A stretch of DNA of 64,000 bases from Treponemataceae bacterium (GTDB taxonomy: Bacteria > Spirochaetota > Spirochaetia > Treponematales > Rectinemataceae): assembly GCA_963667725.2 (NCBI GenBank), contig CAXXHO010000005.1:672001-736000 (forward strand), given 5' to 3'. Within the stretch, counting starts at the first letter, position 1. Every line of letters starts with the position of its first letter. Positions 5,968-39,931 of this stretch are shown here, piece by piece. The notes under the pieces are model-generated. The model saw only the letters and a program-made list of their open reading frames with translations. It made no database searches and was not told the origin of the DNA. A program made the position numbers and the translations under genes.

Positions 5968-6033
5968 AGCAGCATTATAATTAATTGCCTGACCAATCGC
6001 AAGTGTACTTTCATTTAGTCAAGACTGAATGAA

Positions 6034-6065
6034 GACAGGATAACAAGATGGGCAGGATTTACAGG
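6034..6065. repeat. Family-2 repeat, half copy
   Basis: GACAGGATAACAAGATGGGCAGGATTTACAGG, near-identical to 4712-4743; overlaps the stop codon of the wzi-like gene. Confidence 0.75.
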
Positions 6066-9300: not shown

Positions 9301-9390
9301 CCTTCCCTCCTGTTCAATATAATTATCATATACCTCTATACAATTTATTATGTTAACTATATTGAACATTGTCAAGCAAAAATTGGCAAT

Positions 9391-9428
9391 AAAAAAGGCC
9401 ACCCGCGAACGCGTCGCGGGTGGCCTTT
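9391..9428 (-). terminator. Rho-independent terminator
   Basis: AAAGGCCACCCGCGA-loop-TCGCGGGTGGCCTTT stem followed by a U-run on the minus strand, downstream of the MarR gene. Confidence 0.85.
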
Positions 9429-9451
9429 CCAATGAGCGAATCCATAGTCGT

Positions 9452-20557: not shown

Positions 20558-20623
20558 TTTTATTTATTTCCTATAGTGACAAACATCGTGGATGTTTTCT
20601 AGAAACGGCAAAACATCAATTTT

Positions 20624-21610: not shown

Positions 21611-21648
21611 GGTAATTATTTAAATTGTTTGCCGTTGCTTCAGGCGGT

Positions 21649-21687
21649 AAAGTTAAAAATTGGGGTCAGACCCCGATTTTTAACTTT
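21649..21687 (+). repeat. REP-like palindrome, copy 1
   Basis: AAAGTTAAAAATTGGGGTC-A-GACCCCGATTTTTAACTTT. Confidence 0.9.
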
Positions 21688-21689
21688 GT

Positions 21690-22802
21690 TCAGCGAGTGA
21701 TGTAGTTCTTCTCTATCCAGGTTCGGTACTCGCCTGAACGGACATGGGAGCACCATGCCTGGTTGTCCAGATACCAGCGGACGGTGGCGCGAAGGCCAGC
21801 GTCGAAGGTGAAATGTTGTTTCCAGCCAAGTTCATTTTTCAATTTGGAACAGTCGATGGCGTAGCGACGGTCGTGGCCGGGGCGATCTTTCACGTAGGTG
21901 ATGAGGGCTTCGAGGGAGGCTGGATTTCGGTTGCTCTCTTCAGCGACGAGGGCAATGAGACGGCGCAGGAGCGTGATGTTCTCCCATTCATTCTCGCCGC
22001 CGATGTTGTAGGTTTCGCCAGCCCGACCACGATTCATGATAGTCCACACCGCTTCATTGTGGTCTTCCACGTAGACCCAGTCGCGGATATTCCTGCCGTC
22101 GCCGTAGACGGGAAGCGCCTTCCCCTCGAGCATGTTGAGGATCATCAAGGGAATCAGCTTTTCCGGGAATTGATACGGTCCGTAATTGTTGGAACAGTTC
22201 GAGACTGTGACCGGGAGGCCGTAGGTGTGGAAGTAGGCTTTCGCCAGATGGTCGCTGGAGGCTTTGGATGCCGAATACGGCGAACGCGGATCGTAGGGTG
22301 TGGATTCTGTGAAATAGCCCGAGTCACCCAGGGAGCCGAATACCTCGTCGGTGCTCACATGATGGAAGAGAACATCGCCGCGGGCGCCGCCTGACGCGGC
22401 ACCTGCGGCACCGACGCCCCAGGCTTTTCGCGCGACATCGAGCAACGTATAGGTACCAAGGACATTCGTTCTGATGAACGCTTCGGGTCCGAGAATCGAG
22501 CGATCGACATGGCTTTCCGCGGCGAAATGAACCACCGTGTCGATGTCATAGTCGACAAAGACCTTCTCGACGAGGCCGCGGTCGGTGATATCGCCCTTGA
22601 CGAAAGCGTAGCGGGCGGCGGCGCTTGTGCCACCGAACCGCGCGTCGATATCGGCAAGACTCTCCGGATTCCCCGCATAGGTGAGCGCGTCCAGGTTGAT
22701 AACGCGTCCGGCGAAGTCAGGCCTGGCGAAAAGCCAGTGGATGAAGTTCGATCCAATGAAGCCCGAACCGCCGGTGACAAGTATTGAAGACAATTTTCTC
22801 AT
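21690..22802 (-). CDS. rmlB: dTDP-glucose 4,6-dehydratase
   Basis: TGGSGFIGSN, HFAAESHVDRSI, STDEV, YSASK and DRPGHDRRYAID motifs. Confidence 0.95.
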   Translation of the reverse strand: MRKLSSILVTGGSGFIGSNFIHWLFARPDFAGRVINLDALTYAGNPESLADIDARFGGTSAAARYAFVKGDITDRGLVEKVFVDYDIDTVVHFAAESHVDRSILGPEAFIRTNVLGTYTLLDVARKAWGVGAAGAASGGARGDVLFHHVSTDEVFGSLGDSGYFTESTPYDPRSPYSASKASSDHLAKAYFHTYGLPVTVSNCSNNYGPYQFPEKLIPLMILNMLEGKALPVYGDGRNIRDWVYVEDHNEAVWTIMNRGRAGETYNIGGENEWENITLLRRLIALVAEESNRNPASLEALITYVKDRPGHDRRYAIDCSKLKNELGWKQHFTFDAGLRATVRWYLDNQAWCSHVRSGEYRTWIEKNYITR

Positions 22803-22820
22803 TGGAATTCCCTTTCTTGG

Positions 22821-22857
22821 AAGTTAACAAATGGGGTCAGACCCCATTTGTTAACTT
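22821..22857 (+). repeat. REP-like palindrome, copy 2 (perfect)
   Basis: AAGTTAACAAATGGGGTC-A-GACCCCATTTGTTAACTT; encodes the end of the RAYT (KLTNGV*). Confidence 0.92.
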
Positions 22858-23589
22858 TATACGCTTGGAGATGGCAGCTGGACTGAGACCGAGGTAGCGG
22901 GCGATCTGCGATTGGCTGTAACCATCGCGAAGGGCACTTTCAATTGCTTCGTCGCGTACTGCACGCTCTATACCATCACGCTTACGCGCTAAATTCGCTA
23001 TAAGGAAATGCTGCGGGAGCGATTTGCACATGGCAAGCCTCAAGGAGTCAGGGGCTTCGGCATCAGCAGGCTTGACTCCGGCGACTTCGGCTCGCGGCAA
23101 GAACTTTGTGCTGAAGAATTCTGTAAGTTGGGCGATTTCTTCCTGGCTTAGCGCAGGATTTTTCGTGACCGAACTCGCCCAGGGGTATTCGCCGATCCGC
23201 GATGTCATGCCTTTTTTGATGGGATTACGCTCGATATATTTTATAAGAACGTTAAGGTACTTTTCATCGTGCACAAACCAGGATTTAAAACGGCCTTGCC
23301 AGAGAGAACCGACGCGGTCGTATTTACGATTAAAATATTGCGTATAGTCCTGGTCCAAGCGCTTGAGCGCTGACGAAAGATTCTCAAACCGCGTTTCCAA
23401 CAACAAATGATAATGATTCGGCATAAGGCAGTAGGCAACGACATCGAAATCAAAGGCCGATTTTTGGTTGTCGAGGAGGTCCAGGAATCGCCGACAATCT
23501 GGATCGTCCATAAAGATTAAGCGCTTTTCCACACCTCTGTTTATGACATGGTAGAGGCCGATCCGATTCATTCGCGGCAATCGCGACAT
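22837..23589 (-). CDS. REP-associated tyrosine transposase (RAYT; IS200/Y1 HUH family) with C-terminal HTH
   Basis: MSRLPR...YHVINRG, AYCLMPNHYHLL (HUH), LWQGRFKS, YIERNP (catalytic Tyr), YPWAS; C-terminal SQSQIARYLGLSPAAIS; GGAGG RBS before ATG 23589. Confidence 0.9.
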   Translation of the reverse strand: MSRLPRMNRIGLYHVINRGVEKRLIFMDDPDCRRFLDLLDNQKSAFDFDVVAYCLMPNHYHLLLETRFENLSSALKRLDQDYTQYFNRKYDRVGSLWQGRFKSWFVHDEKYLNVLIKYIERNPIKKGMTSRIGEYPWASSVTKNPALSQEEIAQLTEFFSTKFLPRAEVAGVKPADAEAPDSLRLAMCKSLPQHFLIANLARKRDGIERAVRDEAIESALRDGYSQSQIARYLGLSPAAISKRIKLTNGV

Positions 23590-23658
23590 GGCCAGGCACC
23601 TCCGCGTGCAATATTTATGCGCACGGCAGGCAGCTAAAAGATTCAAAGGCCGGGGCAA

Positions 23659-23695
23659 AAAGTTAAAAATTGGGGTCAGACCCCGATTTTTAACT
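23659..23695 (+). repeat. REP-like palindrome, copy 3
   Basis: AAAGTTAAAAATTGGGGTCAGACCCCGATTTTTAACT; encodes LKIGV* of the sugar transferase. Confidence 0.9.
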
Positions 23696-24374
23696 CGGCA
23701 GGGGGCTTAGGCAGATCCGCAAACCAGGTATTCCACAGCTGCGTCCGTGGGCTTACGAGCGACCACGCGGTTAGGAAAATGAGCGTGAAATAATTGCCGA
23801 GGCTCCTGTGCCGCGTCCACCAGACCTCGAGATCGCCCTTGTAGGGAGCGATGACGGTATCATGAAAATGGTCGCGGTCGCCCTGGATCTCGTCGAGAAT
23901 GGATTCCTCGTCGCGGAAAACCACGGATCCGATACCCGTGAGACCTGGCGGCACGGCGTCGATGGCGGCGCGCACCTGCGCCGAATACAGCTCGTAATGG
24001 CGCCTCGCCTGGGGGCGGGGACCCACGAAGCTCATCTGGCCCAGGAAAATGTTGGCGAGCTGGGGAAGTTCGTTGATCTTGGTTTTGCGCAGAAAATTGC
24101 CCATGGGGAGGATACGCGGATCATTCTTCTGCGTGAGGACGCCGCCCGGCAGGTTGGGGCTGTTTTTAAGCATGGTGGCGAACTTGAAAACATTGAAGTC
24201 GCGGCCGCCAAAGCCGACGCGGGGCTGGAGATAAAAAATATAGTGTTCGCCAGTGAGCTTCAGGCCGACCATGATGGGCAGCATGAAGGGGAAGAGAATG
24301 AGCATGGCGACAGAGGAAAAAATGATATCGAAGAGGCGTATGAGCATTGGCGCGAATGTAGACACTGAAGGCAT
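23676..24374 (-). CDS. Bacterial sugar transferase (priming phosphoglycosyl transferase)
   Basis: RLFDI, KFATM, DPRI, LRKTKINELPQL, MSFVGPRP and PGLTG motifs. Confidence 0.9.
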   Translation of the reverse strand: MPSVSTFAPMLIRLFDIIFSSVAMLILFPFMLPIMVGLKLTGEHYIFYLQPRVGFGGRDFNVFKFATMLKNSPNLPGGVLTQKNDPRILPMGNFLRKTKINELPQLANIFLGQMSFVGPRPQARRHYELYSAQVRAAIDAVPPGLTGIGSVVFRDEESILDEIQGDRDHFHDTVIAPYKGDLEVWWTRHRSLGNYFTLIFLTAWSLVSPRTQLWNTWFADLPKPPAELKIGV

Positions 24375-24384
24375 GGGCCGTCCT

Positions 24385-24424
24385 AAAGGTTGAAATTTGG
24401 GGTCAGACCCCGTTTGTTAACTTT
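24385..24424 (+). repeat. REP-like palindrome, copy 4
   Basis: AAAGGTTGAAATTTGGGGTCAGACCCCGTTTGTTAACTTT; encodes KLTNGV* of AbiEii. Confidence 0.88.
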
Positions 24425-25129
24425 TGAAGGTCATCGGCGAGAAGGGCTTGGAGGTAGCGCCAATAATCGTCGGAGAGAGCGGTATCGACAATCGGTCCCA
24501 ATGGGAGGAAGCGACGCATCTCGTTCCGGAAGTCTTCCCGGATCGAAGCATCAGCGCCGATACTCCCGATACGCGCCGTGAGTGAGTCAAAAAATCCTGA
24601 CGTCGTTTTATGGTGATCTAGTATTTTTTGGGCAATAAAATCGGTATTCAACGCGACACCCTGTCGCTCGAGCCAGGCAATATCCCATAGATCGCGGTTT
24701 TTAATTCTATTCGGCCTGAATGCCAGAGCGAGGAATTTATCGGCGAGTATTTCCTCCCGGCTCTGCGCGCGAAGGATGAGCCCCGAAGTTCCCATTTCCA
24801 CACCGTATCGATTGCGAAGCATCATGGGGCGGAATTCGTGGCTAGGGATCGAGCAGATATCGATATGGATACGTTGGGCTTTCAGATCTTTCCGCTCCGG
24901 CCGCGTCCGCACTATCACCTTCCACGTATCGACGTTCCCAGCCTCCCGAACCGTAACAAGCCCTAAGGCAGGTGCCTCCGATGAAGGTAAGCAGGACCAA
25001 CAGGCCAGCGTCGCTCATCAATCGCAGGATATCGTGATGGAGCAACTCCTTTTCGACGACAGGACGAAGCACCGCGAGTTCGGGGCTATTGCGGATCGCT
25101 TCGTCGACGAGCGCGTCAAAGAGGCTCAT
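24403..25129 (-). pseudogene. AbiEii-type nucleotidyltransferase toxin, frameshifted by an internal deletion
   Basis: N-terminal frame VEKELLH...FIGGTCLRACYGS; C-terminal frame EILADK...RDLWD; the expected R-x-S-E-D-L-D segment is missing near 24940. Confidence 0.75.
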
Positions 25130-25680
25130 CTTTCATCCTTTTGCGCAACGAGACTCATATCGACAAGATCCATGGGCCTTTTGGCCGAACGCATATCCGC
25201 AAGCGCGAGGGCGATCGAAGCCCGCCAGAGTCGACATTGCCCGTCCCAGCTTAGCTCAGAAGCGAGGCGCGAAGGATCTTTGCCGGTATGGATGAATTCG
25301 ATAGTGCCAAAGCCCTCGCACTCAATTTTTCCGGATCGACCCGAACTCATGACTGTAATCCAGGAAAATGGAATCTGGGATATGAGTCCCGCGTCAGATA
25401 GCACCGTTTCACGACTCAGATAATTGAAACGCTCGGCTCGCAGACGGGCCGCGGCATGGAACAGCACTCTATCCCGCGGGTAATCTACTTTTTCGTAGAT
25501 ATAGAGGTTCCTGCATAGCCGTTTCAGCGATCCCATCCTCGATGCCCTGGAAACGAGGGTCTTGAAGGTATCGTAGGATAACTCGGGCAAAAGAGCGTGG
25601 AGATCGCGCAGGGAGAAAAGGTAGTGCTCGCGGTCAGCAAGCCGCGCGAGTGTCTCAGAAAAGATCCTGACTGGCTGCAT
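25126..25680 (-). CDS. Type IV TA antitoxin, AbiEi family
   Basis: LKRLCRNLY and YLSRETVLSDAGLISQIP motifs; overlaps the abiEii start. Confidence 0.8.
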   Translation of the reverse strand: MQPVRIFSETLARLADREHYLFSLRDLHALLPELSYDTFKTLVSRASRMGSLKRLCRNLYIYEKVDYPRDRVLFHAAARLRAERFNYLSRETVLSDAGLISQIPFSWITVMSSGRSGKIECEGFGTIEFIHTGKDPSRLASELSWDGQCRLWRASIALALADMRSAKRPMDLVDMSLVAQKDER

Positions 25681-25712
25681 TTCCGCTCCGATCGACTGCT
25701 GATAAGCGGCAA

Positions 25713-25729
25713 GTTACACTAAGTGTAAC
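25713..25729. promoter_or_regulatory. Inverted repeat in the abiE promoter (likely autoregulatory operator)
   Basis: GTTACACT-A-AGTGTAAC lying between/over TCGACA-17-TAACTT on the minus strand. Confidence 0.55.
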
Positions 25730-25751
25730 CTAGTGTCGATCAAAATTCAAT

Positions 25752-25790
25752 AAAGTTAAAATTTGGGGTCAGACCCCGTTTGTTAACTTT
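25752..25790 (+). repeat. REP-like palindrome, copy 5
   Basis: AAAGTTAAAATTTGGGGTCAGACCCCGTTTGTTAACTTT; the PIN gene stop lies in the right arm. Confidence 0.9.
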
Positions 25791-26190
25791 TGGGCCAAAG
25801 AATCTTTAAGCCGAAATCCTTGAACCTCTCAAATTCTCCATCTTTACTCACTATCGTCATATTCCTTCGAATACATTGCCAGATCAACATTCTGTCGAAG
25901 GGATCATTGTGCGTGTTCTCGGCCAAGTTCACATAACTGCTCGCTTCCTCGGGAGTCAGGTCGATAAGCTGAAAATCCATCTTCTCCGCAAAAGAAATCA
26001 AGTCTTCAATAGGCAGGCCACCAAGATCCAGTTTCTTGATCCTTGTCTTTATCGCGATTTCCCAAAAAGTGACGGCACTAACAAAGACTTCATTGTGTGG
26101 ATTCTTGAGTTCCGACAGCACTTTTTCCGGCAAGGATTTGGATCGAGTGACCGACCAAAGAAATGCGCGGGTATCCAGCAGGTACTTCAT
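25783..26190 (-). CDS. vapC: PIN-domain (VapC) toxin
   Basis: YLLDT, VSAVTFWEIAIK, HNDPFDRMLI and VSKD motifs. Confidence 0.9.
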   Translation of the reverse strand: MKYLLDTRAFLWSVTRSKSLPEKVLSELKNPHNEVFVSAVTFWEIAIKTRIKKLDLGGLPIEDLISFAEKMDFQLIDLTPEEASSYVNLAENTHNDPFDRMLIWQCIRRNMTIVSKDGEFERFKDFGLKILWPKS

Positions 26191-26429
26191 TCCAGACCTA
26201 CGAGCTCTTCTTCCGTCATCTTGAAATCAGCAGAAAATCGTACCGTATACTTGCCGTCAAGAATCCCTAGTTTCCTTTCTTTCTTCTCTTCAAGGTCCTC
26301 GAAGGGTACAATCATCGCAACGGGCTTTTTCTTTTTACCATAGAGAATTCCAAACTTCTGGCCTTGCCGTACCTTTTCGAGAACTTCCGAGAATTGAGCC
26401 TTCAGCTCACCGACAGGCAGTGTTTTCAT
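26187..26429 (-). CDS. Phd/YefM-family antitoxin
   Basis: MKTLPVGELKAQFSEVLEKVRQG...PVAMIVP; overlaps the vapC start; TTGTCAAGTTGACAA palindrome at its -35. Confidence 0.85.
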   Translation of the reverse strand: MKTLPVGELKAQFSEVLEKVRQGQKFGILYGKKKKPVAMIVPFEDLEEKKERKLGILDGKYTVRFSADFKMTEEELVGLE

Positions 26430-26493
26430 ACCCAAAGCGTACCTATACTATTTTTGTTTGTCAAGTTGACAAGTTTGATTTCGATACATTGTT

Positions 26494-26526
26494 GGACAGG
26501 ATACCAGGACCGCCAGAATGTACAGG
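26494..26526. repeat. Family-2 repeat, degenerate half copy
   Basis: GGACAGGATACCAGGACCGCCAGAATGTACAGG, 8 bp upstream of REP copy 6. Confidence 0.6.
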
Positions 26527-26534
26527 AAAGCTAT

Positions 26535-26561
26535 AAAAGTTAAAAATTGGGGTCAGACCCC
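26535..26561 (+). repeat. REP-like copy 6 (left arm + core)
   Basis: AAAAGTTAAAAATTGGGGTCAGACCCC. Confidence 0.88.
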
Positions 26562-26615
26562 GGTTCTATCGCGGAACCGTTTGACATAGTATCGGTTCTG
26601 CGGTAGACTCGATCT

Positions 26616-27809
26616 ATGAATACACTATACGAAATCCTCGATTCGTTGCGTATTGTTCAGGCGCGGCTGGAAGATGCGCTCAAGACGCCCGCCAGGCCTT
26701 GGCAAGGCGGCGCGGCGCTACGCGGCGGCGCGGCCCTGAAAGACAGATCAATGCTTCTCTATGGTCCGCGCGGGGTCGGTAAAACAACCTTTCTTGTGCG
26801 CGAAGCCAAAGCGAGGGGAGCCGTCTACCTCAGCATGGATCATCCCGCCCTTGCAAACCTATCGGTCTATACTGTCGCGGAAGCGCTGTTTCAGCGAGGA
26901 GTGATGCAGGTCTGCCTGGATGAAATCCACTACGCGACACATTGGAGCGAGGATCTCAAGGCCTTGTACGACGCGTGGCCTGATCGCTCCATCTGGGCTT
27001 CCGGATCGGATTCGCTCCTGTTGTCATCGGGAATAGGGGATCTTTCGCGACGCTACATCGGCATCGCCATGCCATTTCTGTCGTTTCGGGAGTTTCTGGT
27101 TCTCAAAGGATATCCGGATTTCGGAGTCCATGACCCTTTCTCGACGGATACCACATGGGTGTCGAGCGTCATGGCGGCAGGCAACATTCTTAGGCTTTTC
27201 GAAACCTATTTGGTATCAGGTCTACGTCCGCTTTTCATGGAGGGCGAAGACCGCTACGCCACCCGGATATTGCAGGTCGTTCAAAAGACGCTTGAAGCTG
27301 ATATCCCACGTATTGTGCAAACGGTGGCCCAAAATCATTTTAGCCTGATGAACGCGGTGCTCGGATATCTATCACAGACGAATATTCCCGTGGTACAGGT
27401 AAATTCACTCTGCCGCGAGTGGAATGTCGGAAAAGAGAAGCTCTATGCCCTTTTGCAGGCAATGGAGCAAACAGGCTTGATCAGGATTGTACGAAAGCCG
27501 AGCGATCACGCGGCGCGATCGATCGGCGCCAAGCTCTTTCTGGCAGATCCATCCCTGTACCCGGCGCTCAGCGGGAAGGAAGGCAACGCGCGGGAAGCCT
27601 TTGTGGCCTGCGCGTTTTCTTCAGCGAGGCATAGGGTCTACGCCGCTCAGGATGAACAGGAAGGTGATTTCCTCGTGGATGACTCTTTTCTGATTGAGAT
27701 TGGCGGATCGCGAAAACCTCGGAAGAAGGCGAATTTCGTGATTCGCGACGGCGCGGATTATCCCGTACCGGGAGTAATCCCTTTATGGATGATGGGATTC
27801 GGCTGGTAG
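26616..27809 (+). CDS. AAA+ ATPase, AAA_14/DUF4143 type
   Basis: GPRGVGKT, LDEIH, ASGS, LSRR, KLFLADP and GDF...IEIGG motifs. Confidence 0.85.
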   Translation: MNTLYEILDSLRIVQARLEDALKTPARPWQGGAALRGGAALKDRSMLLYGPRGVGKTTFLVREAKARGAVYLSMDHPALANLSVYTVAEALFQRGVMQVCLDEIHYATHWSEDLKALYDAWPDRSIWASGSDSLLLSSGIGDLSRRYIGIAMPFLSFREFLVLKGYPDFGVHDPFSTDTTWVSSVMAAGNILRLFETYLVSGLRPLFMEGEDRYATRILQVVQKTLEADIPRIVQTVAQNHFSLMNAVLGYLSQTNIPVVQVNSLCREWNVGKEKLYALLQAMEQTGLIRIVRKPSDHAARSIGAKLFLADPSLYPALSGKEGNAREAFVACAFSSARHRVYAAQDEQEGDFLVDDSFLIEIGGSRKPRKKANFVIRDGADYPVPGVIPLWMMGFGW

Positions 27810-27810
27810 C

Positions 27811-27837
27811 AAAAGTTAACAAACGGGGTCAGACCCC
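27811..27837 (+). repeat. REP-like copy 7 (left arm + core)
   Basis: AAAAGTTAACAAACGGGGTCAGACCCC; supplies the GV* end of vapC and abuts the ATPase stop. Confidence 0.88.
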
Positions 27838-28242
27838 AGCGGAAGGATCCATAAGGGAGAGGTCACGGAAATATTCGCGGTAGTAGCCGCGGTCGCGAGC
27901 CAGGAGACGATCGGCATTCAAACGCGCGTGGGCAGCGATTAGAAAATCAGGCAGAACGCGTCGGGACTGGCCGCGGTTTTTCAGGTACGAAGCGTAGATC
28001 GAGCCTGCGAGCGTGGCGCTCTCAAGGGAGGCGGGCAGGAACTCAAGGCCCACATCGCCCAGGAAGGCCGCGAGTTGCTGGTCGGAAGCCAAGGCTGGCC
28101 TTAGTTCGGCGATAACAGATTCGCAGACAACCAGCCTGCCCGAAGCTCGGGCTTCAGCTAACGCAGCTTCCGAATTCGCTGCGTGGCGCGGATCATCGGT
28201 AAGAATATCGAGAAGCACCGATGTGTCGACAGCGGTTGTCAT
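27829..28242 (-). CDS. vapC: PIN-domain (VapC) toxin
   Basis: AVDTSVLLD, VIAE, LPDFLIAAHA and LLARD motifs. Confidence 0.88.
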   Translation of the reverse strand: MTTAVDTSVLLDILTDDPRHAANSEAALAEARASGRLVVCESVIAELRPALASDQQLAAFLGDVGLEFLPASLESATLAGSIYASYLKNRGQSRRVLPDFLIAAHARLNADRLLARDRGYYREYFRDLSLMDPSAGV

Positions 28243-28463
28243 CCGCGAACCTCGTCCAAATACGCATCGACATCGGAGATGCCCCCAGGAAGATGCCCTT
28301 TACCCCGCCATGTTCTCAGCGCGTCCTGAGGTTCTTTCTTGGTTCCGATGATTTTACCCTGTACCAGCTCGAATTCGATGATCGTACCAGGACGGATGCC
28401 CAGCTTGGTGCGTATAGCCTTGGGCAGGGTTATCTGGCCTCGTTCGGATACGGTAGTTTTCAT
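28239..28463 (-). CDS. AbrB/MazE/SpoVT-family antitoxin
   Basis: MKTTVSERGQITLPKAIRTKLGIRPG. Confidence 0.88.
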   Translation of the reverse strand: MKTTVSERGQITLPKAIRTKLGIRPGTIIEFELVQGKIIGTKKEPQDALRTWRGKGHLPGGISDVDAYLDEVRG

Positions 28464-28520
28464 ACTTTTATAGTAAGTATTCATATTTTTTTTGTCAAGG
28501 CTGGTATTGGGCTAGGGCAA

Positions 28521-28558
28521 AAAGTTAACAAACGGGGTCAGACCCCGAATTTTAACTT
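28521..28558 (+). repeat. REP-like palindrome, copy 8
   Basis: AAAGTTAACAAACGGGGTCAGACCCCGAATTTTAACTT; the dehydratase stop overlaps the arm end. Confidence 0.9.
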
Positions 28559-29747
28559 ACATCTTGGCGTCGAGGAATTTGCCGGTTTCTTTGTGGGCGA
28601 ACTCGGGGATGGTGGCGTTGAAGAGGTCGATAAGCTGGGCGCGGGTCCAATGGCCTTTTTCGCGCATAACGCGTATCTCGGACTCGAAGCGTTTGAGGGC
28701 GGGCGCGTCATAGGCAGGTTCATTTTTGATGACGCCGATGGATTCGAAGCGGTCCAGGTCGAGGCTTTCCTTATCGGTGAAGAATTCCTCAAAGTCCTTT
28801 TCGCCCGTCGTGTCGCTCGCGAAGAAGAAAACGGGCCACTTGCCCTGCGCTTTCAATTCGCCCACGCGGGCGCGAGCTTCATCCTCGCTCGCACACTCCA
28901 CTGGCTCATAGCCCCGATGTTTCAAATATCTTTCCGCGATCTCGGAGAACGTTATGAGATTGGCCTCCGCGTTGAGTTTTGGAAAGAAAAGATCGCGGTT
29001 TTCGCCCAGAAGGGCGGACATCAGACAGAGCTCGCCCGATTCCTTGGGCGTGACAAAGTAGCGCCTGACATCGTTGGGAGCGGAAATGGGCTGTTCTTTC
29101 TCAAGGCGTCTATTGAAACCATAGAGTAGGCTTCCATCGGAGAAGGCCACGTTGGCGAAACGGGCGGTGGAAACGGGCAGCTCGAGGCTCCGGCGCATAA
29201 GAAAATATTCCATAATACGCTTGCTGGCGCCCATCATGTTCACGGGATTAGCCGCCTTGTCTGTCGACACGCAGAAATATTTCCTCGCGCCCGCCGCGGC
29301 GGCCTGCCTCATAGTTTTATCGGTGTTAAACACATTGACGTCGACCATGCGCATCAAGGTATAAGGATCCTTCTCGCTGCGCACATGTTTCAGCGCGGAA
29401 AGATTGAGCACGTAATCGTAACCGGGGCCGTTCTTCATGAAGGCGTCGAAGATGTCGCTGCCCGCGTCGATGGCGAAGGTGGCGAATTCGCCCGAAGAAT
29501 AGCCGATGGACGAGCGCAGGTCGCGCACCAGCTCGACCATGTTGTTCTCGCTGATGTCCACCACATGAAGCAGCTTAGGATCGCGCCTGAAAATCTCGCG
29601 CGTGACCGCCTGCCCAATGGAACCAGCGCCGCCTATAACAAGAAAACGCGAGGCCTTGACGAAGCGCGACAGCTCGACCTCGCGGGAAGCCAGATCGGCA
29701 GCGAAGAGTTCTTCCTTTCTGCCGATGATATCAAGAATGGAATCCAT
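28557..29747 (-). CDS. UDP-N-acetylglucosamine 4,6-dehydratase family protein (Polysacc_synt_2)
   Basis: GGAGSIG, SALKHV, STDKAANPVNMMGASK and RFANV motifs. Confidence 0.85.
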   Translation of the reverse strand: MDSILDIIGRKEELFAADLASREVELSRFVKASRFLVIGGAGSIGQAVTREIFRRDPKLLHVVDISENNMVELVRDLRSSIGYSSGEFATFAIDAGSDIFDAFMKNGPGYDYVLNLSALKHVRSEKDPYTLMRMVDVNVFNTDKTMRQAAAAGARKYFCVSTDKAANPVNMMGASKRIMEYFLMRRSLELPVSTARFANVAFSDGSLLYGFNRRLEKEQPISAPNDVRRYFVTPKESGELCLMSALLGENRDLFFPKLNAEANLITFSEIAERYLKHRGYEPVECASEDEARARVGELKAQGKWPVFFFASDTTGEKDFEEFFTDKESLDLDRFESIGVIKNEPAYDAPALKRFESEIRVMREKGHWTRAQLIDLFNATIPEFAHKETGKFLDAKM

Positions 29748-29767
29748 AGCGCACCTTATTGTAAGTA

Positions 29768-31408
29768 GGGATTCCTGAAGAACCCGCTTTTCAATCTTTC
29801 AAGCCGCTCTCAACAGCCCCATTGGTATAAATTTTAATCGTTCTGCTATTTCAATAATCGTATCAATGAGCAACACAAAAAGGGCTTTCGCCTTTCTCCT
29901 TGCCAACACCATGAGGTTCATCACCAAGAATACCATCATGATGGAAGTCTCGCTCGTTTCCTTAAGCTTCGTTCCAATACTATCGAGCGTATAACGTCGT
30001 TTCGCTTCTCCAAACTTGCCCTCTACCGCGATCCTCATGCTCTCATCTTCTCGCTCGATTCTTTTTTGTTCACGTATTCGTTCTTTATTCTTGCCGTTAA
30101 CCTTGAACGGCCTTCCCAGCTTCGGCCCCGATAATCGTATCCCATACTCTTGGCAGTACTGCAGATTCTCCCTCGTCCTATAGATCTTATCGGCGCATAC
30201 CGCTTCTGGATATCTCCCATATCGCCGCTTATAGCTTTCTATTTGCCCTTTCAAATCTTTGCATTCGTTGTAGGAATCCCATGAGAGCCTATAGACTTCC
30301 GCCATTCCATCAACAAGGCTCAACGAGAGCTTCGCTCCAAACTCATACATTCCTCGGGCCTTTCCTCTCGCGATCGGACGCACCCAAGGCTTACTTATGC
30401 TTAAGATCCTTCCTTCTATCGACCAGGTGTCACTGCGGTACAATTCTCTCTGCTGGCGGACCAATTCTCCGATTACCCACAGATCCTGCCGCTGCTTTCT
30501 CGAGAGCGAAGTTATCCCTACTTTGTCCTTGTATTCATTGATCAACCGCAGGTTCCGCTCGACATATTGGATCTGCGTTTTCAACGCTCTCCTTATCGTA
30601 TTCACTCTCGGCTTTCGGTTCCGTATGAAGGTCAGAAACTCTTTTCTCGCCTTCTTCCTATACGTCCTTGGTTTTTCCCAACCCTCCGGCATTTCTTTCT
30701 GGAGCGTATCGATGATACTTTCAGTCTTCCTTCTCGCTTCATCCAGCAAGGTCACATCATGGGGGAATCTCATATCTTCGGGAGCGCAGGTAGCATCAAC
30801 GATCAAGGTCCCTTTATTCTCTTGCCCTTTCTCTTCTCCATCCCCTGCGCCGTTGCCTTTATCTTCATCATCATGGTGTTCATCGTCGGCTTTGCTCTTC
30901 TCGATGATCAATGAATTCACTTCTTTCAGGACGTCAGCAGATAATCGTTTCCTGAAATGCACCATCATGCTCGGATCGAAAGGTATCTCATATTTGTATC
31001 CTTCGTATCCTAAGAAGAACTGTAGATAAGGACTCTCTCGAATATCCTCCACCAGTTCTTCATCTGAAAGATTCTTCTTCTCTTTTATTATGAGAGCGCC
31101 TAACGCGACTCTCACCGGTATCGCCGGCCTTCCATTATTAGCGACGAACAGCTTTGAATATTTCTCTTCGACATCTTTCCAAGGGATCAGGCTTGCCAAG
31201 ATTACCCAACGATTATCCGCTTTCAAGCTGCCGCCGAACACCATGTCGAACTGATCAAACTCAGGCGTATACTTTGGTATTCTGTACATCTTCGCCTTCC
31301 AAGTGCACGACTTTTTCACGCTTTTCTTCAATTTCCGTGCACTTTTCCGGTCCATTATATCATATATTCCTTTAACTGATTTGACTTTATTTCTTTTTCA
31401 GGAGCCCC
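29768..31408 (-). mobile_element. Intact IS5-family insertion sequence
   Basis: TIRs GGGATTCCTGAAGAA / GGGGCTCCTGAAAAA; 6-bp target duplication TAAGTA at 29762-29767 and 31409-31414. Confidence 0.88.
29799..31355 (-). CDS. IS5-family DDE transposase
   Basis: GRPAIP, FDPSMMVHFRKR, IVDATC, EFGAK, ADKIY and RIAVEGKFGEAKR motifs; start may be MYRIP. Confidence 0.9.
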   Translation of the reverse strand: MDRKSARKLKKSVKKSCTWKAKMYRIPKYTPEFDQFDMVFGGSLKADNRWVILASLIPWKDVEEKYSKLFVANNGRPAIPVRVALGALIIKEKKNLSDEELVEDIRESPYLQFFLGYEGYKYEIPFDPSMMVHFRKRLSADVLKEVNSLIIEKSKADDEHHDDEDKGNGAGDGEEKGQENKGTLIVDATCAPEDMRFPHDVTLLDEARRKTESIIDTLQKEMPEGWEKPRTYRKKARKEFLTFIRNRKPRVNTIRRALKTQIQYVERNLRLINEYKDKVGITSLSRKQRQDLWVIGELVRQQRELYRSDTWSIEGRILSISKPWVRPIARGKARGMYEFGAKLSLSLVDGMAEVYRLSWDSYNECKDLKGQIESYKRRYGRYPEAVCADKIYRTRENLQYCQEYGIRLSGPKLGRPFKVNGKNKERIREQKRIEREDESMRIAVEGKFGEAKRRYTLDSIGTKLKETSETSIMMVFLVMNLMVLARRKAKALFVLLIDTIIEIAERLKFIPMGLLRAA

Positions 31409-31433
31409 TAAGTATTTTCGGCAAAAAAAGTTA

Positions 31434-31560
31434 GACAGGATAACAGGATCTATCACGATTAACAAAAAAATCTTTCTGGTAAAGAGAAGAATCTCTCTTT
31501 CTTTTCTTTCTTTACCCAAAACTCTTCCCTGTCAGTCTTGCCCGTCCCGTTATCCTGTCC
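31434..31560. repeat. Family-2 repeat: full hairpin fused directly to REP copy 9
   Basis: GACAGGATAACAGGAT...GGTAAAGAGAAGAA...TCTTTACCC...CCCGTTATCCTGTCC. Confidence 0.8.
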
Positions 31561-31585
31561 AAGTTAAAAATCGGGGTCAGACCCC
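31561..31585 (+). repeat. REP-like copy 9 (left arm + core)
   Basis: AAGTTAAAAATCGGGGTCAGACCCC. Confidence 0.88.
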
Positions 31586-31644
31586 ATATGGTGCAAATTG
31601 TAAATACAATTGACAATATACACCAGGCTACCTATACTTATACT

Positions 31645-32808
31645 ATGATCCCACGAATCCTGGCTGGAAAAATCGTTCAATGGAGCGGCGAGTACCCGGT
31701 TGTCACTGTCACGGGGCCTCGCCAATCGGGAAAGTCGACGCTCTGCAAGGCACTGTTTCCGGACAAACCCTATGTCTCGCTGGAGGAAAGTTCCCTGCGA
31801 CTCCAGGCAATCGAAGATCCGCGCGGCTTTCTGGCGCGATATCCGGACGGAGCCATACTGGACGAAATCCAACGGGTGCCCGAACTATCGTCTTATATTC
31901 AGACTATTGTGGACAGCCGCGACAGGCCGGGGATGTTCATCCTGACGGGGAGCCAGCAGTTCGAGCTTATGGCTGGTGTCTCGCAATCGCTGGCCGGACG
32001 CACGGCTATAGCGCGCCTTCTGCCCCTGAGCTACCAAGAACTCTACTCCACACGCTCCGCCCCAGATCTTTCGACTATGCTCTATACCGGATTCTATCCC
32101 CGTATCCATGACAAGAAGCTTGATCCATCTGAGGCGATGTCCTTCTATTTTTCGACCTATGTCGAGCGGGACTTGCGGCAGATTCTTCAGGTGAAAGATT
32201 TGGGCAACTTCGAGCGATTCATGCGCCTTCTGGCGGGACGCAATGGCCAGATTCTGAACGCGAGCAGCCTGGCGGGTGAATGCGGCATCAGCCATGGGAC
32301 CGTGAGAGGCTGGATCAGCGTCCTTCAGCAAAGTTCTCTGGTATACCTTCTTCAGCCATACTATCGGAACCTTGGCAAGCGTCTGGTGAAGTCGCCGAAG
32401 CTGTACTTCCTCGACACCGGATTGCTGTGCTGGCTTCTGAACATTTTCAGTCCCGAGCACCTGAATACCCACCCTTTGCGAGGGGCGATTTTCGAAGCTT
32501 ACGTCGTCGCGGAATTCCTCAAGTCACTGTATAACCGCGGGAAGCCGGACACCCTTCTCTACTTCAGGGATCAGAAAGGACATGAGGTGGATCTGCTTTC
32601 GGAAACTCAGCCAGAAACCCTTCTGTGTGAAATCAAATCATCCGCTACCTTCCATCCTGATTTTATTGCAGGGATGAACTATGTTGAAACTTTGCTGGCG
32701 CAGCCGGCCCAGCCGGTCAAAAAGCGGCTTATCATGGGGTCTTTGGATGAACCTTACTGGTTCAAGGACACCCAGGTACTCAGCTATCCCAATGCGGGCG
32801 ACGTGTGA
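31645..32808 (+). CDS. AAA+ ATPase, AAA_14 + DUF4143 type
   Basis: MIPR..GPRQSGKST, LDEIQR, LTGSQ, SLAGR, KSPKLYFLDTG and EVDL...EIKS motifs. Confidence 0.9.
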   Translation: MIPRILAGKIVQWSGEYPVVTVTGPRQSGKSTLCKALFPDKPYVSLEESSLRLQAIEDPRGFLARYPDGAILDEIQRVPELSSYIQTIVDSRDRPGMFILTGSQQFELMAGVSQSLAGRTAIARLLPLSYQELYSTRSAPDLSTMLYTGFYPRIHDKKLDPSEAMSFYFSTYVERDLRQILQVKDLGNFERFMRLLAGRNGQILNASSLAGECGISHGTVRGWISVLQQSSLVYLLQPYYRNLGKRLVKSPKLYFLDTGLLCWLLNIFSPEHLNTHPLRGAIFEAYVVAEFLKSLYNRGKPDTLLYFRDQKGHEVDLLSETQPETLLCEIKSSATFHPDFIAGMNYVETLLAQPAQPVKKRLIMGSLDEPYWFKDTQVLSYPNAGDV

Positions 32809-32834
32809 AAAGTTAAAAATCGGGGTCAGACCCC
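32808..32834 (+). repeat. REP-like copy 10 (left arm + core)
   Basis: AAAAGTTAAAAATCGGGGTCAGACCCC; first base is the A of the ATPase TGA; core supplies the GV* end of ImmA. Confidence 0.88.
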
Positions 32835-33390
32835 GGTCATTAACTGTCGAGAAGAGATGTTCTCATCGCTGATTCTTCTAGAAACAACATTTTCAGACAC
32901 TCCAAAGTATTCTATGGCGGCATCTGCGATAACTCGCTTGAGATATTCAGCAGATCGCACCGTGATAACCGGATCATGCGTTTTTTGGTATGCAACCCGT
33001 TGCTCATCGAAGAAGCGGCGAAGCTCTAGCGAAGGCACAAGGAGATTGCCCGCAAAATTATTGGCTTGATACTCGAACCATTTATGGGCTTTATCTGATT
33101 TTAAGCGATGGAAATTAATATAGTCGTCGAGATCATTAAATCGTTGTTTAGGATAAAGCTCCGCATGAAGGATGATATGACTTATCTCATGAGCCATGGA
33201 AAAACGAAGGCGATTCACATAACGTTCATCCATGTATTCATACTCATCAACATGCATCGTTCGAAAGTCAAAGGCCTTCGATATCGATAGGAAATATCCT
33301 ACAACGAGCAAAACGAGATCTAAAATGCTCTACTTTGGCTTTTATCTCATCGTCCTCCATGAAGGGAGGGCAAAGATCTTCATTCGCCAT
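32826..33390 (-). pseudogene. ImmA/IrrE-family metallopeptidase, frameshifted near its 5' end
   Basis: RFSMAHEISH and EYQANNFAGNLLVP motifs; likely natural start ATG 33390 (MANEDLCPPF...PIDIEGL*) is out of frame with the catalytic part. Confidence 0.65.
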
Positions 33391-33751
33391 CAGTGCTTCT
33401 CGAAAGGATCTCGATGATCTTTCTAAAATCCTCTTCTGTAGGCTTTACATTGTCCACCGTTCTTAAGAAAGCGGGGAGCTGGCCTAAAATCACCTCATTC
33501 GTCATGATGAATTTTGGAATACTCCCGGCTGCAACTTCCGCCTTTGCTATGAAGTCCTGAATGGAATTTGGAGGAATTCCCACTACCAAAGCAATTCTTT
33601 CCAATCGATCGTGGTCGGTGGGTGGAGCCATGAGCTCTCTTTCGATCTTGCTCCAATTGCTTGGATCTTCCCCCGTGGCCTTGCAGAATTCCCGCAAGGA
33701 AATACTTTTAGAAATCCTCAAGTCTTTAACTTCATTGCCAAACATCAGCAC
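33380..33751 (-). CDS. Xre-family HTH regulator (partner of ImmA)
   Basis: FGNEVKDLRISKSISLREFCKATGEDPSNWSKIER. Confidence 0.8.
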   Translation of the reverse strand: MLMFGNEVKDLRISKSISLREFCKATGEDPSNWSKIERELMAPPTDHDRLERIALVVGIPPNSIQDFIAKAEVAAGSIPKFIMTNEVILGQLPAFLRTVDNVKPTEEDFRKIIEILSRSTDGE

Positions 33752-33900
33752 CTCCGTGTGTGGTATTTTTATACCACACTCTTAATTTACTACGTATTGG
33801 TGCTATGTCAACCACAAATCATACTAATTTTACAAAATATATTTCATCAATATTTATCTCAGCGACAACAATCTATACCACTACTTTTTCTTCCTTCAGG

Positions 33901-33927
33901 AAAAGTTAAAAATTAGGGTCAGACCCC
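33901..33927 (+). repeat. REP-like copy 11 (left arm + core)
   Basis: AAAAGTTAAAAATTAGGGTCAGACCCC; supplies GV* to the DegT fragment. Confidence 0.85.
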
Positions 33928-34323
33928 CAAATGTGACTTTAGGGAGTCGCAGACTAGGTCTACTTCGGCTATCGTCATCGTGGGATAGAGGGGAAGCGTG
34001 AGTTCGTGTTCGCTGATGTACTGGCTCTTGGGCGTTGGGCCAACCCTGTCCTTGTACGCGGTGAAGCTCTGTATCGAAGGATAGTGGATGGAAGTCTGGA
34101 TGCCATCCTCCTTCATCCGCTCAATGAGCGCGGCCCTATCGATTTCTTTGGAAAGAAGAACCGGCATGATATGGTAGGTAGGAGTTCCTCTATCGTAATG
34201 GCGGAACGGAACGCTCAAGAATTCTTTCATCGCGTCCAGCCTGAAAAAATACCGCGCCACAAGCGCCGCGCGGGCGGCATTCGCCTCTGGCAACTTAGCA
34301 AGCTGCACAAGCCCCAAAGCGGA
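33919..34323 (-). pseudogene. 3' fragment of a DegT aminotransferase, near-identical to about 38790-39176
   Basis: Near-identical protein sequence LGLVQLAKLPEANAARAALV...EVDLVCDSL; no 5' part. Confidence 0.9.
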
Positions 34324-34363
34324 AAAGTTAAAAATCGGGGTCGGACCTCCATTATTAACTTTT
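34323..34363 (+). repeat. REP-like copy 12 (degenerate)
   Basis: AAAAGTTAAAAATCGGGGTCGGACCTCCATTATTAACTTTT; abuts the manC stop. Confidence 0.8.
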
Positions 34364-35503
34364 TCAGGTGTAAGTTCCAGGAAAACGATGTTGAATTTCG
34401 GAATGTAGCTTTTTTAGTTCCTCAACCTTGGACTTTGGACAGATGAGAGTAGCGTCGGCTGTGTGGACGATCACCATCTCGTCGCAACCGAAACAGGCTA
34501 CCAAGTGGTTGGGAACTGTGGAGACGACGAGCGTGTTGTCGCATTCCTTGAAGATGACAGGTACTTCCACGTTGTCGGAAGCAGTGAGCATAGATGTATT
34601 GCCTGATTCATCGGTTTTAGCTAAGGAACCATACGCAGTCCAGGAACCGATATCCTTCCAATCGAGATCGAGGGCGACGCAGGCGATGCTGACATCAGGG
34701 TCTTGGGATGCGGGTTCCATGATACCATAATCGACCGACTTCTTTTTTATGGTTGGGTAGATACTTTCCATGAGCGCTGTGCGAGCGGCTGGATCGGGCT
34801 CGTCCACGATAGTTTTGATCGCGGAAAAAACCTCAGGTTCATAGTGGTTCAGAAGCTCAAGAAAGCGGGACGCCTTCCATACAAACATACCTGAATTCCA
34901 GAGATAGCAATTGCTACCAGCCTTCAGATAAGTTTGCGCGGCGGCCAAATCGGGCTTTTCCTTGAAACGTCGTACGCGCCTAATCCCGTTTTCGGCGAGG
35001 GGTTCGCCTAATTCCAGATAGCCATAAGCAGTCGAAGGAAAGTGAGGTCTGATCCCAAAGGTGAGAAGAAGGTCGGGTTTTTCCTCTACGAGTGCAAAAG
35101 CATGGAAAAGCGATGCACGGAAGGAATCTAGCGGTCGCATCACGTGATCGGAGGTGAGAAAGGCGACGACGGCATTGGGATCGACAGCTCGGGCGAGCGC
35201 GCAGGAGTAGCCTATGGCCGCCAGGGTATCGCGGCCGACAGGCTCGCCGATATAGGTCGAGAGGGAAGGAATGCGCTTCCGCACCGCCGCCTCGTGCCGG
35301 GCGCCACCACAAACCCAGCGACGATTCTCGGGCAGTACGCCCAGGAGCCTGTCGAAGGCTTCCTCGAGGAGACTCCTATCCCCAAGCACGGGAATAAGCT
35401 GTTTGGGCAGCGATTCCCTGGAAAGAGGCCAGAGCCGAATGCCAGAACCTCCGGCGAGAATGACGGCATAGCGATTCGATATTTTATTAACTAACATCAT
35501 CAA
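34364..35503 (-). CDS. manC: Mannose-1-phosphate guanylyltransferase
   Basis: ILAGGSGIRLWPLSRESLPKQ, EPVGRDT, FKEKP, WNSGMF, SVDYGIME and WKDIGSW motifs. Confidence 0.92.
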   Translation of the reverse strand: MMMLVNKISNRYAVILAGGSGIRLWPLSRESLPKQLIPVLGDRSLLEEAFDRLLGVLPENRRWVCGGARHEAAVRKRIPSLSTYIGEPVGRDTLAAIGYSCALARAVDPNAVVAFLTSDHVMRPLDSFRASLFHAFALVEEKPDLLLTFGIRPHFPSTAYGYLELGEPLAENGIRRVRRFKEKPDLAAAQTYLKAGSNCYLWNSGMFVWKASRFLELLNHYEPEVFSAIKTIVDEPDPAARTALMESIYPTIKKKSVDYGIMEPASQDPDVSIACVALDLDWKDIGSWTAYGSLAKTDESGNTSMLTASDNVEVPVIFKECDNTLVVSTVPNHLVACFGCDEMVIVHTADATLICPKSKVEELKKLHSEIQHRFPGTYT

Positions 35504-35559
35504 TTTTTTCTCAGATTACTTCTTAAAAGATTTTCATATAATTTATTCAAAATCATCTC

Positions 35560-37649: not shown

Positions 37650-37651
37650 GA

Positions 37652-39920: not shown

Positions 39921-39931
39921 AATCACCTTCC

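Follow-up and report, generated by a model that had tools for sequence, protein, structure and literature searches.

The window analysed here is a 64-kb stretch of a Treponemataceae bacterium genome (C5:672001-736000 in an 8-contig, 4.22-Mb assembly), in which twelve copies of a short hairpin repeat (R1 to R12) separate eleven gene units, one of them encoding an enzyme that resembles the REP (repetitive extragenic palindrome)-associated tyrosine transposases (RAYTs). The G+C content of the window is 47.6%, compared with 55-56% across the contigs. Between about 10 and 58 kb its genes lie nearly all on the minus strand and serve surface-polysaccharide synthesis and export, including GT4, Wzz, a 2474-aa export protein, rmlD/rmlB, several DegT genes, a flippase, Wzy and glycosyltransferases.

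According to Pfam the eleven units are, in order, rmlB-like; Y1_Tnp with a helix-turn-helix (HTH); Bac_transf; AbiEii/AbiEi; PIN/Phd; AAA_14; PIN/MazE-AbrB; Polysacc_synt_2 with an IS5-type transposase (IS, insertion sequence); AAA_14 with DUF4143; M78/HTH; and a C-terminal fragment of DegT. PADLOC names AbiEi and AbiEii, assigns both ATPases to the candidate family PDC-S01 and places the M78 protein near CapP/RmrA. The features of the array are as follows.

20624-21610 and 21690-22802, minus strand: rmlD-like and rmlB-like dehydratase genes (Pfam)
21650-21686: R1, two-armed 37-nt palindrome between rmlD and rmlB
22821-22857: R2, two-armed palindrome that codes for the final six codons and the TGA stop of the RAYT
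22837-23589, minus strand: RAYT-like Y1 HUH transposase, 250 aa from the ATG at 23589 (Pfam Y1_Tnp; C-terminal HTH)
23660-23696: R3, two-armed palindrome upstream of the RAYT; core TGA ends Bac_transf; present in five of five aligned loci
23676-24374, minus strand: Bac_transf sugar transferase (Pfam), without a counterpart at the matching place on contig C4
24387-24423: R4, palindrome with a weaker left tag, AGGTTGA; core TGA ends AbiEii
24403-25129, minus strand: AbiEii, split in two open reading frames (ORFs); 25126-25680, minus strand: AbiEi (Pfam, PADLOC)
25753-25789: R5, two-armed palindrome; right arm holds the PIN stop
25783-28484: PIN/Phd (minus), AAA_14 ATPase (plus, 26616-27809) and PIN/MazE-AbrB (minus) (Pfam)
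26537-26561, plus strand: R6, single unit ahead of the plus-strand AAA_14 gene; fold -6.9 kcal/mol, z -1.6
27813-27837, plus strand: R7, single unit; core TGA ends the second PIN gene
28522-28558: R8, two-armed palindrome at the 3' end of Polysacc_synt_2
28557-29747, 29799-31355 and 31431-31560, minus strand: Polysacc_synt_2, IS5-type transposase (Pfam) and a 130-nt palindromic element
31561-31585, plus strand: R9, single unit abutting the 130-nt element, 2 nt before the ATG of AAA_14/DUF4143
31588-33751: AAA_14/DUF4143 ATPase (plus) and M78 peptidase/HTH pair (minus) (Pfam, PADLOC)
32810-32846: R10, palindrome; core TGA ends the M78 peptidase gene
33903-33939: R11, core AGGGTCAGACCCC with a weak right arm; core TGA ends the DegT fragment
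33919-34317, minus strand: DegT 3' fragment of 132 aa that repeats the 3' end of the complete DegT (38763-39926)
34325-34361: R12, degenerate core GGGGTCGGACCTC; its tag-side edge is the exact break point of the DegT fragment

The repeat and its partner enzyme

A search of the window for the core GGGGTCWGACCCC with up to one mismatch gave 11 matches, all within 21662-33927 (expected 0.03), and the 25-nt pattern AAGTTAA-N5-GGGGTCAGACCCC with up to three mismatches gave 20 (expected 0.00). Twelve of the latter lie on the plus strand, at 21650, 22821, 23660, 24387, 25753, 26537, 27813, 28522, 31561, 32810, 33903 and 34325, and the eight on the minus strand coincide with these sites. The 25-nt unit consists of a 7-nt tag (AAGTTAA), a 5-nt A/T-rich spacer (N5) and a 13-nt hairpin core, GGGGTC-A-GACCCC; over 52 tagged units the consensus is aAAAGTTAAaAAtt-GGGGTCAGACCCC. 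At eight of the twelve sites both strands carry a tag within three mismatches, so that a pair of units, sharing the self-complementary core, makes up a palindrome of 37 nt. Single units stand at 26537, 27813 and 31561, and the second arm of R11 is weak. The core is exact at ten sites, has one mismatch in R11 and is degenerate in R12; its central base on the plus strand is A at eleven sites and G at the degenerate twelfth. Folded as single-stranded DNA, the 37-nt palindrome reaches -15.3 kcal/mol on the plus strand (z -6.1; R1) and -12.9 on the minus strand, and single units fold weakly (-6.9 and -4.2 kcal/mol, z -1.6 and -1.0). The GTAG or CGTC tetranucleotide of classical REPs is absent from the foot of the hairpin, the tag being of the AAGTTAA type. 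Neither search found a further copy in the window beyond 21650-34361, the sole other trace being a decayed remnant, TTAGGGTCCGAC, at about 38763-38774, at the stop of the complete DegT gene. An Rfam search of 18000-38000 with E values up to 1 returned no matches.

An earlier note, made from the sequence alone, had described eleven units between twelve sites of one polarity, with no intact copy elsewhere in the 64 kb. Pfam agrees with its units, with the correction that AbiEii comprises two ORFs; its coordinates agree with ours within 0-2 nt, and the plus-strand unit is indeed present at all twelve sites. Its motif of tag, five bases and hairpin stands as well, and is more precisely a 25-nt unit that is doubled into a 37-nt palindrome at eight of the twelve.

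The RAYT-like protein matches Pfam Y1_Tnp with an E value of 1.1e-12. Its sole match in the PDB is E. coli TnpA-REP (4er8, E 0.001), in an alignment that spans the HUH and Tyr motifs. These motifs read H59-Y60-H61 and Y118-I-E-x-N-P, and H59, H61, Y118, N122 and P123 are invariant in the query and in 20 of 20 homologues (44-86% identity), which also conserve the HTH. Judged by its sequence the enzyme is intact, with the HUH and the catalytic Tyr motif kept. The position of its start is common to five aligned loci, and its repeat-encoded C-terminal tail, KLTNGV/KLKIGV, recurs in close homologues. The family comprises 898 proteins at E values up to 1e-5, and close relatives come from a Rectinemataceae metagenome-assembled genome. 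A second RAYT lies in an array on contig C4; the two proteins are 86% identical, and their units are 82% identical in DNA and occupy syntenic loci. The assembly has a contamination estimate of 6.3%, and C4 may represent a second replicon or a relative that was co-assembled; in both cases it provides an independent homologous locus.

Repeats and enzyme occur together. R2 and R3 flank the RAYT gene of the window, and repeats likewise flank the RAYT on C4, in the relative genome G020 and at loci L016, L024 and L165. At L165 (70% identity) the flanking doublets are inverted, which is the classical layout, and at L023 a downstream copy is visible at the contig end. An apparent lack of a repeat upstream of the L024 RAYT was rejected, as the alignment shows a copy there with one core mismatch. 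Among 80 loci with RAYT homologues in named genomes a relaxed 11-nt core was found at eight. At five of the 80 (L023, L024, L043, L064 and L085) the exact 13-nt core lies within about 900 nt of the homologue, which for the last three is 35-42% identical; the remaining three of the eight are lone matches, differently flanked and far from the gene. This is further supported by two metagenome contigs, L150 (32% identity) and L174 (49%), whose RAYT homologues are also flanked by the core; at L174 the tag is changed to AATTTAAG and the core is unchanged. In the whole genomes of five hosts with a RAYT homologue we counted 74, 19, 19, 10 and 8 cores, with none for the reversed control in each case. 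The 74 copies, in an Acidimicrobiales host (the genome of L085), are spread over many contigs. The start of the core, GGGGTCAG, fits GGGGWSAS, a motif described for repeats flanking TIRYT genes (PMC3733652). The window repeats belong to the TIRYT-type RAYT as its cognate REP/TIR (terminal inverted repeat) partners, and the link between REP hairpins and the RAYT drawn in the earlier note is supported here, in close relatives and beside distant homologues in other phyla.

Five further arrays with at least three cores (L165, L174, L104, L142 and L162) were annotated, and polysaccharide-type genes are present in every one. At L165 and L174 a RAYT again occurs together with rmlB, AAA_14/DUF4143 and either Bac_transf or AbiEii; the gene set accompanies RAYTs down to 49% identity. 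Two side observations concern such loci. The metagenome contig L104 carries, at 6002-6602, a 155-aa classical IS200-type TnpA (Y1_Tnp, 4.9e-41) between two GGGGTCTGACCCC hairpins, with BrnA-type antitoxin units nearby that are each followed by the same GGGGTCTGACCCC hairpin. In G043 (Vicinamibacterales, with a 35% identical RAYT homologue) copies of the core are arranged head to tail in runs, recurring about every 42 nt (C2:3396-3619 and C34:17686-17828 of that genome).

Across the 4.22-Mb assembly GGGGTCNGACCCC occurs 29 times, with 13 copies on C5, 13 on C4, two on C6, one on C3 and none on C1, C2, C7 or C8. About two thirds of these cores lie in the two arrays that each stand beside a RAYT gene, i.e. 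the window array with 12 and C4:22831-29641 with seven, all seven in one orientation. The remainder is found mainly among tandem AAA_14/DUF4143 genes, on C4, on C6 and at C5:745-757 kb. Instead of the hundreds of ordinary intergenic copies that the earlier note had named as the contrary outcome of a genome-wide count, the 29 cores occupy about five accessory regions and are neither high-copy nor dispersed. The tagged repeat was found in two of 40 relatives, G005 (6 pattern matches) and G020 (9), with no match to the reversed control pattern in any; the two same-genus genomes have no tagged repeat. Overall, 38 of the relatives lack both a close RAYT and the repeat, one has both and one has the repeat only. 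The G+C skew of C5 and C4 gives a noisy profile with no usable switch for leading- or lagging-strand placement.

The tandem ATPase genes are accompanied by another family of repeats, palindromic elements that measure about 130 nt and have the ends GGACAGGATAAC...GTTATCCTGTCC. Copies lie in the window (31431-31560, where the element directly abuts R9, and 4711-4827), in L005 (C5:745001-762000), L002/L003 (C4:60001-92000) and L006 (C6:18001-34000), and they separate tandem, diverged AAA_14/DUF4143 genes (PADLOC candidate PDC-S01). At L005:258-8389 six of six consecutive ORFs are AAA_14/DUF4143 genes spaced by about 1.45 kb; at L002 this holds for four of six, the other two being PRiA4_ORF3 proteins.

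The boundary role that the earlier note ascribed to the hairpins was compared to that of integron attC sites, with no tyrosine integrase involved. The latter holds for the locus, as no integron integrase was found within 120 kb of the array. The genome as a whole, however, encodes three, with scores of 462, 454 and 447 bits against a curated cut-off of 265.

C7:37069-37989, C1:34408-35331 and C5:550880-551806: integron integrases, above the curated cut-off

The nearest, at C5:550880-551806, is some 142 kb away from the repeats and is accompanied by an attC array of its own. One could therefore regard the repeats as unusual attC sites, a cluster lacking an adjacent integrase (CALIN) that is served in trans by one of the three enzymes, and the GTTAAC-type ends of some copies do loosely resemble attC R boxes. 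We consider this very improbable. The attC-like sites found with a loose R-box pattern within 25 kb of each integrase (15, 19 and 17) are mostly 96-141 nt long and have a common consensus of their own, unlike the 25/37-nt repeat, and none of the 29 cores lies in the integron arrays (C1, C7 or C5:525-552 kb). The repeat is a near-perfect palindrome with no extrahelical bases and no unpaired central spacer, and its arm order, GTT...AAC, is the reverse of that of attC. Moreover, in an unrelated host with a RAYT homologue the core is a dispersed repeat of 74 copies. The repeats are not attC sites.

Repeats at gene ends

Read on the minus strand the unit is AAG TTA AAA ATC GGG GTC TGA, and the core TGA ends six ORFs (RAYT, Bac_transf, AbiEii, the second PIN gene, M78 and the DegT fragment). 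Of the further stops, one lies within the tag, one overlaps the last bases of the repeat and two fall 3 nt past it. For eight of ten minus-strand (or operon-terminal) genes with a repeat directly downstream, the stop lies inside or overlaps the repeat. A hairpin followed by a T-run is present on the minus strand at eight of the twelve repeats, and on at least one strand at ten. Judging from this pattern, the unit resembles a weak terminator on the gene-sense strand.

These properties speak for an explanation in which the repeats are passive, either as terminator or mRNA-end elements or as selfish REPs at gene ends, and in which modules change through homologous recombination, IS elements and horizontal replacement, as is usual for hypervariable islands of polysaccharide and defence genes. 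The low G+C content of the window and its four IS types are in line with such a history. However, independent terminators would not have an identical 13-nt core and 7-nt tag in common, and the core follows RAYT homologues across phyla even where no T-run comes after it. Terminator-like sites are only weakly enriched region-wide (25 against 18.7 +/- 4.5 in shuffles). In addition, rmlB begins 18 nt past R2, which leaves no room for a promoter of its own, so that strong termination at R2 would deprive rmlB, rmlD and the export gene of transcription. Passive repeats are a possible but rather unlikely account of the array, on which the strain comparisons below also bear.

The repeats also appear as sites in their own right. 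IS110-family elements target REP and attC hairpins, and such an element (DEDD_Tnp_IS110 and Transposase_20) lies inside a repeat core at C4:27503-28898 (L001 12503-13898). When it is taken out in silico, a full palindrome is restored between AbiE and PIN/MazE on C4, at the position of R7.

Module differences between homologous loci

Ten homologous loci differ by whole modules, comprising toxin-antitoxin, AbiE, ATPase and sugar genes. Between the window and C4 the homology blocks are 21652-23695, 24385-25775 and 27841-29711 (81-83% identity), plus the IS5 element, and their ends fall on R1, R3, R4, R5 and R7; at the corresponding positions C4 lacks counterparts of the Bac_transf unit and of the PIN/Phd and AAA_14 units. 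Near R5 homology to C4, L016 and L024 stops at 25775-25789, and near R8 that of L016, L024 and L165 begins at 28517-28520. In G020 and L024 a single repeat joins AbiE directly to Polysacc_synt_2, the three units at 25783-28484 being absent, and at L162 one repeat joins Bac_transf to AAA_14. The rmlD gene with R1 has no counterpart in G020 (L017), L023, L165 and L174. Between rmlB and RAYT, L024 holds an additional PIN/MazE pair and an additional repeat, at a place with a single site in the window, C4, G020, L023 and L165; by parsimony this unit is a gain. In G005 the PIN/Phd and AAA_14 block is on the opposite side of Polysacc_synt_2, and next to it come a HicB unit and an entire DegT gene. 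In many pairs the blocks end within 0-5 nt of repeat edges, which is not what passive repeats would lead one to expect. Thus, gene-sized module differences often break at repeats. The hybrid repeats have arms too alike for the exchange point to be placed within them.

A Bac_transf gene elsewhere on C4 was considered as a moved copy of the missing unit and dropped: G020 has a second Bac_transf after Polysacc_synt_2, and the C4 gene is more likely the counterpart of that one. The AbiE region of the window is about 130 bp shorter than that of C4.

The DegT fragment (33919-34317) duplicates the 3' 400 bp of the complete DegT gene, 4.4 kb away (38763-39926). R11 bounds it on the left, as in G005 and a near-identical strain represented by the metagenome contig Ga0074195_1003118, and on the right it breaks off exactly at the tag edge of R12; the complete DegT ends at the decayed core remnant. 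Fragment and complete gene bracket R12 and four sugar-nucleotide genes (34364-38686), and the near-identical strain and G005 have one uninterrupted DegT beside the repeat. The fragment is 98.4% identical to the near-identical strain, compared with 95.8% for the full gene and 95-96% for the backbone, and the 98.4% block common to both strains begins at 32808 (R10). Sequence comparison allows two readings, in which the fragment is possibly resident or possibly imported. TnpA-REP is described as cutting single-stranded REP DNA 5' or 3' of the hairpin in vitro and transferring the strand to an incoming 3'-OH (PMC8266576), and by analogy the end of the fragment at R12 would fit this joining chemistry.

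The explanation that we favour, and hold to be probably correct, is that the cognate REP/TIR repeats of this TIRYT-type RAYT seed gene junctions and that the island evolves in gene-sized steps by way of them. By analogy with TnpA-REP enzymes in vitro, the enzyme would bind the hairpin on single-stranded DNA, nick beside it and join the cut end to another 3'-OH. Such strand transfer would seed new units, mostly nearby, at gene junctions that tolerate an insertion. Direct copies flanking a module would then allow repeat-by-repeat recombination, which may delete modules and occasionally join in foreign ones, and this would make the island evolve in gene-sized steps. The catalyst of the recombination may be the RAYT, host slippage or homologous exchange between the 25-37-nt repeats.

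A stronger claim makes the locus a genuine cassette platform, equivalent to an integron but run by an HUH enzyme: the RAYT would cut out modules bounded by repeats as single-stranded circles and insert them again at other repeats. Several of the findings suggest this: the single orientation of the plus-strand unit at 12 of 12 sites and of all seven cores in the C4 array, the derived extra module with its extra repeat in L024, the occurrence of the PIN/Phd and AAA_14 block on opposite sides of Polysacc_synt_2 in the window and G005, a non-functional gene fragment (DegT) bounded by two repeats, cargo of toxin-antitoxin and defence genes such as integron cassettes often carry, the same gene set travelling with RAYTs down to 49% identity, and the strand transfer described in vitro for other members (PMC8266576). 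The design of the array, however, is not uniform, with units on both strands and promoter-like sites before toxin-antitoxin units, and it has no attI-like entry site and no common promoter. The comparison of related loci that the earlier note had called for supports it in so far as gains, losses and reorderings often break at repeats; the capture, excision or shuffling of genes by the RAYT that it proposed is not borne out, and we regard both such RAYT-driven activity and the full cassette platform as possible but unlikely, for reasons that follow.

Several observations weigh against the favoured explanation or limit it, and most of them tell more heavily against capture by the enzyme. The RAYT scores 71.2 bits against the NCBIfam model REP_Tyr_transpos (NF047646), under its cut-off of 80, the tag of the repeat is not GTAG/CGTC, and in G005, which is 94% complete and has repeats, no RAYT was found using this query. 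Of 68 homology-block ends against 12 other loci, 31 lie within 25 nt of a repeat, as do only 7.6% of positions; this figure speaks for breaks at the repeats, but it is descriptive only, since the compared loci are related and the repeats are intergenic, where blocks tend to end anyway. The other 37 ends lie off repeats and cluster at the AbiEii indel, the IS5 element and the 130-nt element. Shared modules are uniformly diverged (82-83% between C5 and C4, 82-86% against G020 and L024), which fits vertical descent of the whole array followed by indels and not repeated capture. In the near-identical strain, whose RAYT is 92% identical, the locus is collinear at 95-96% over 18225-29763 with the order unchanged across nine repeats. 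Beyond 29763 this strain lacks the IS5 element (which is absent from G005 as well), has a different unit replacing AAA_14/DUF4143 and carries a complete DegT. About 21 kb of polysaccharide genes in the window (39700-61349) stand against one Bac_transf-like gene in Ga0074195_1003118, and there is no window repeat at about 39.7 or 61.3 kb, the edges of this replacement. Large strain differences that end off repeats and a uniform divergence of the backbone are what passive repeats would also predict.

Furthermore, the AbiEi/AbiEii junction of C4, inside the operon, contains a repeat unit with no change of genes, in contrast to G020 and L024, which lack a repeat at that point, and to the window, where another short filler takes its place. 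At least this one site differs without any cargo, which argues against the repeat as a mark of capture; like the IS110-family insertion and the end of the DegT fragment at R12, it speaks for the favoured explanation in so far as the repeats behave as active DNA ends. Finally, the assembled contigs X1-X3 hold no excision product, circle or repeat-to-repeat deletion among joints whose sides do not exceed the repeat length. Joints at or near repeats (e.g. 27843>32808 and 32846>25752) have sides of 28-40 nt, i.e. the length of the repeat, and so are uninformative; those at 24441>25392 and 24349>25644 fall inside genes.

Apart from these comparisons, the island holds a HipA-type kinase gene and four IS types (IS5-type, IS1595, an HTH_32 and DDE_3 pair, and DDE_Tnp_1), the kinase and the transposases lying at 8071-9516, 29799-31355, 49090-49743, 58503-59707 and 61538-63193. 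The Bac_transf gene of G020 is interrupted by a copy of the IS1595 element of the window. The export-type protein of 2474 aa (13133-20557) is EpsE/Wza-like in its N-terminal part, and its gene has internal DNA repeats, such that several stretches within 15.2-18.1 kb match one part of related contigs.

Relation to known systems

Our literature searches found no description of RAYT- or REP-bounded gene-cassette arrays. Why RAYTs persist at one or a few copies, and what role their repeats play for the host, is treated as an open question in publications on these enzymes (PMC5581495, PMC8266576). The locus offers a tractable case, with about 30 repeats, two diverged arrays in one assembly, at least ten natural module variants and an intact enzyme. 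If the enzyme drives the module changes, this would be an integron-like mechanism based on an unrelated recombinase, acting where phage receptors (surface polysaccharide) meet anti-phage genes (AbiE, PDC-S01-type ATPases, M78/HTH and PIN toxins). If it is not the driver, the locus is still an example of how low-copy REPs can structure an island, supply stop codons and attract IS110-family elements. More generally, RAYT/TIRYT enzymes with low-copy repeats might be a second, integrase-free route to gene-cassette arrays, in which the HUH nuclease would recombine tag-plus-hairpin sites on single-stranded DNA and thereby build up and reshuffle modules for defence, toxin-antitoxin and sugar-modifying functions in surface-polysaccharide loci. 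This is doubtful, and we keep it in view because the same gene set recurs with RAYTs down to 49% identity; if true, it would give these long-puzzling 'domesticated' transposases a host-level role.

With integrons and CALINs the locus has in common gene-sized units that each end in a hairpin site of constant orientation, a cargo of toxin-antitoxin and defence genes, stop codons overlapped by variants of the site and an IS110-family insertion into a site. It differs in having no integrase at the locus, no attI and no common promoter, in 25/37-nt sites without the R''-L''...L'-R' architecture of attC sites, which span about 57-141 nt, and in its slow turnover. The IS200/IS605 'peel and paste' transposons use an enzyme of the same superfamily, and direct hairpins on one strand could act as left and right ends of a single-stranded segment that can be excised; here, however, there is no repeated identical element and no TnpB, and the two RAYT units are 82% identical in DNA and lie in syntenic loci. 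Recombination by HUH relaxases between two oriT copies is a formal precedent for deleting DNA between direct nick sites, although it involves a different enzyme family and a conjugative context.

The RAYT resembles the enzyme of REPtrons and REPIN-RAYT systems, such as E. coli TnpA-REP (4er8), in its HUH motif and single Tyr, in the flanking of its gene by its own hairpins, and in a unit of 5' tag and hairpin that forms back-to-back doublets. Unlike these, it lies under the NCBI family cut-off and has an extra HTH domain, the tag lacks the GTAG/CGTC tetranucleotide, and tens of copies are clustered in a few accessory islands in place of hundreds, with two RAYT copies. Flanking repeats of low copy number, with 12-14 occurrences, have been documented in RAYT groups 1 and 4 (PMC8266576, PMC5581495).

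The closest published kind is the TIRtron/TIRYT group, a likeness judged from its published description. TIRtrons were defined by Di Nocera, De Gregorio and Rocco (2013) as RAYT-like genes flanked by non-GTAG inverted repeats; several TIRYT repeats are described as having GGGGWSAS in common, and some as moderate repeat families 'in dimers or clusters' (PMC3733652). Like these, the present locus has a Y1 HUH gene flanked by inverted copies of a repeat without GTAG, whose GGGGTCAG start fits GGGGWSAS. Unlike TIRtrons as described there, it has repeats at nearly every gene junction of a 13-kb stretch, where they mark module differences between genomes, together with a fixed AAGTTAA tag 5 nt from the hairpin and a conserved C-terminal HTH in the protein. 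A local array that marks the seams of an island, along with the tag, the HTH and the behaviour of the seams, marks this system out as a distinct variant among the REP/TIR systems.

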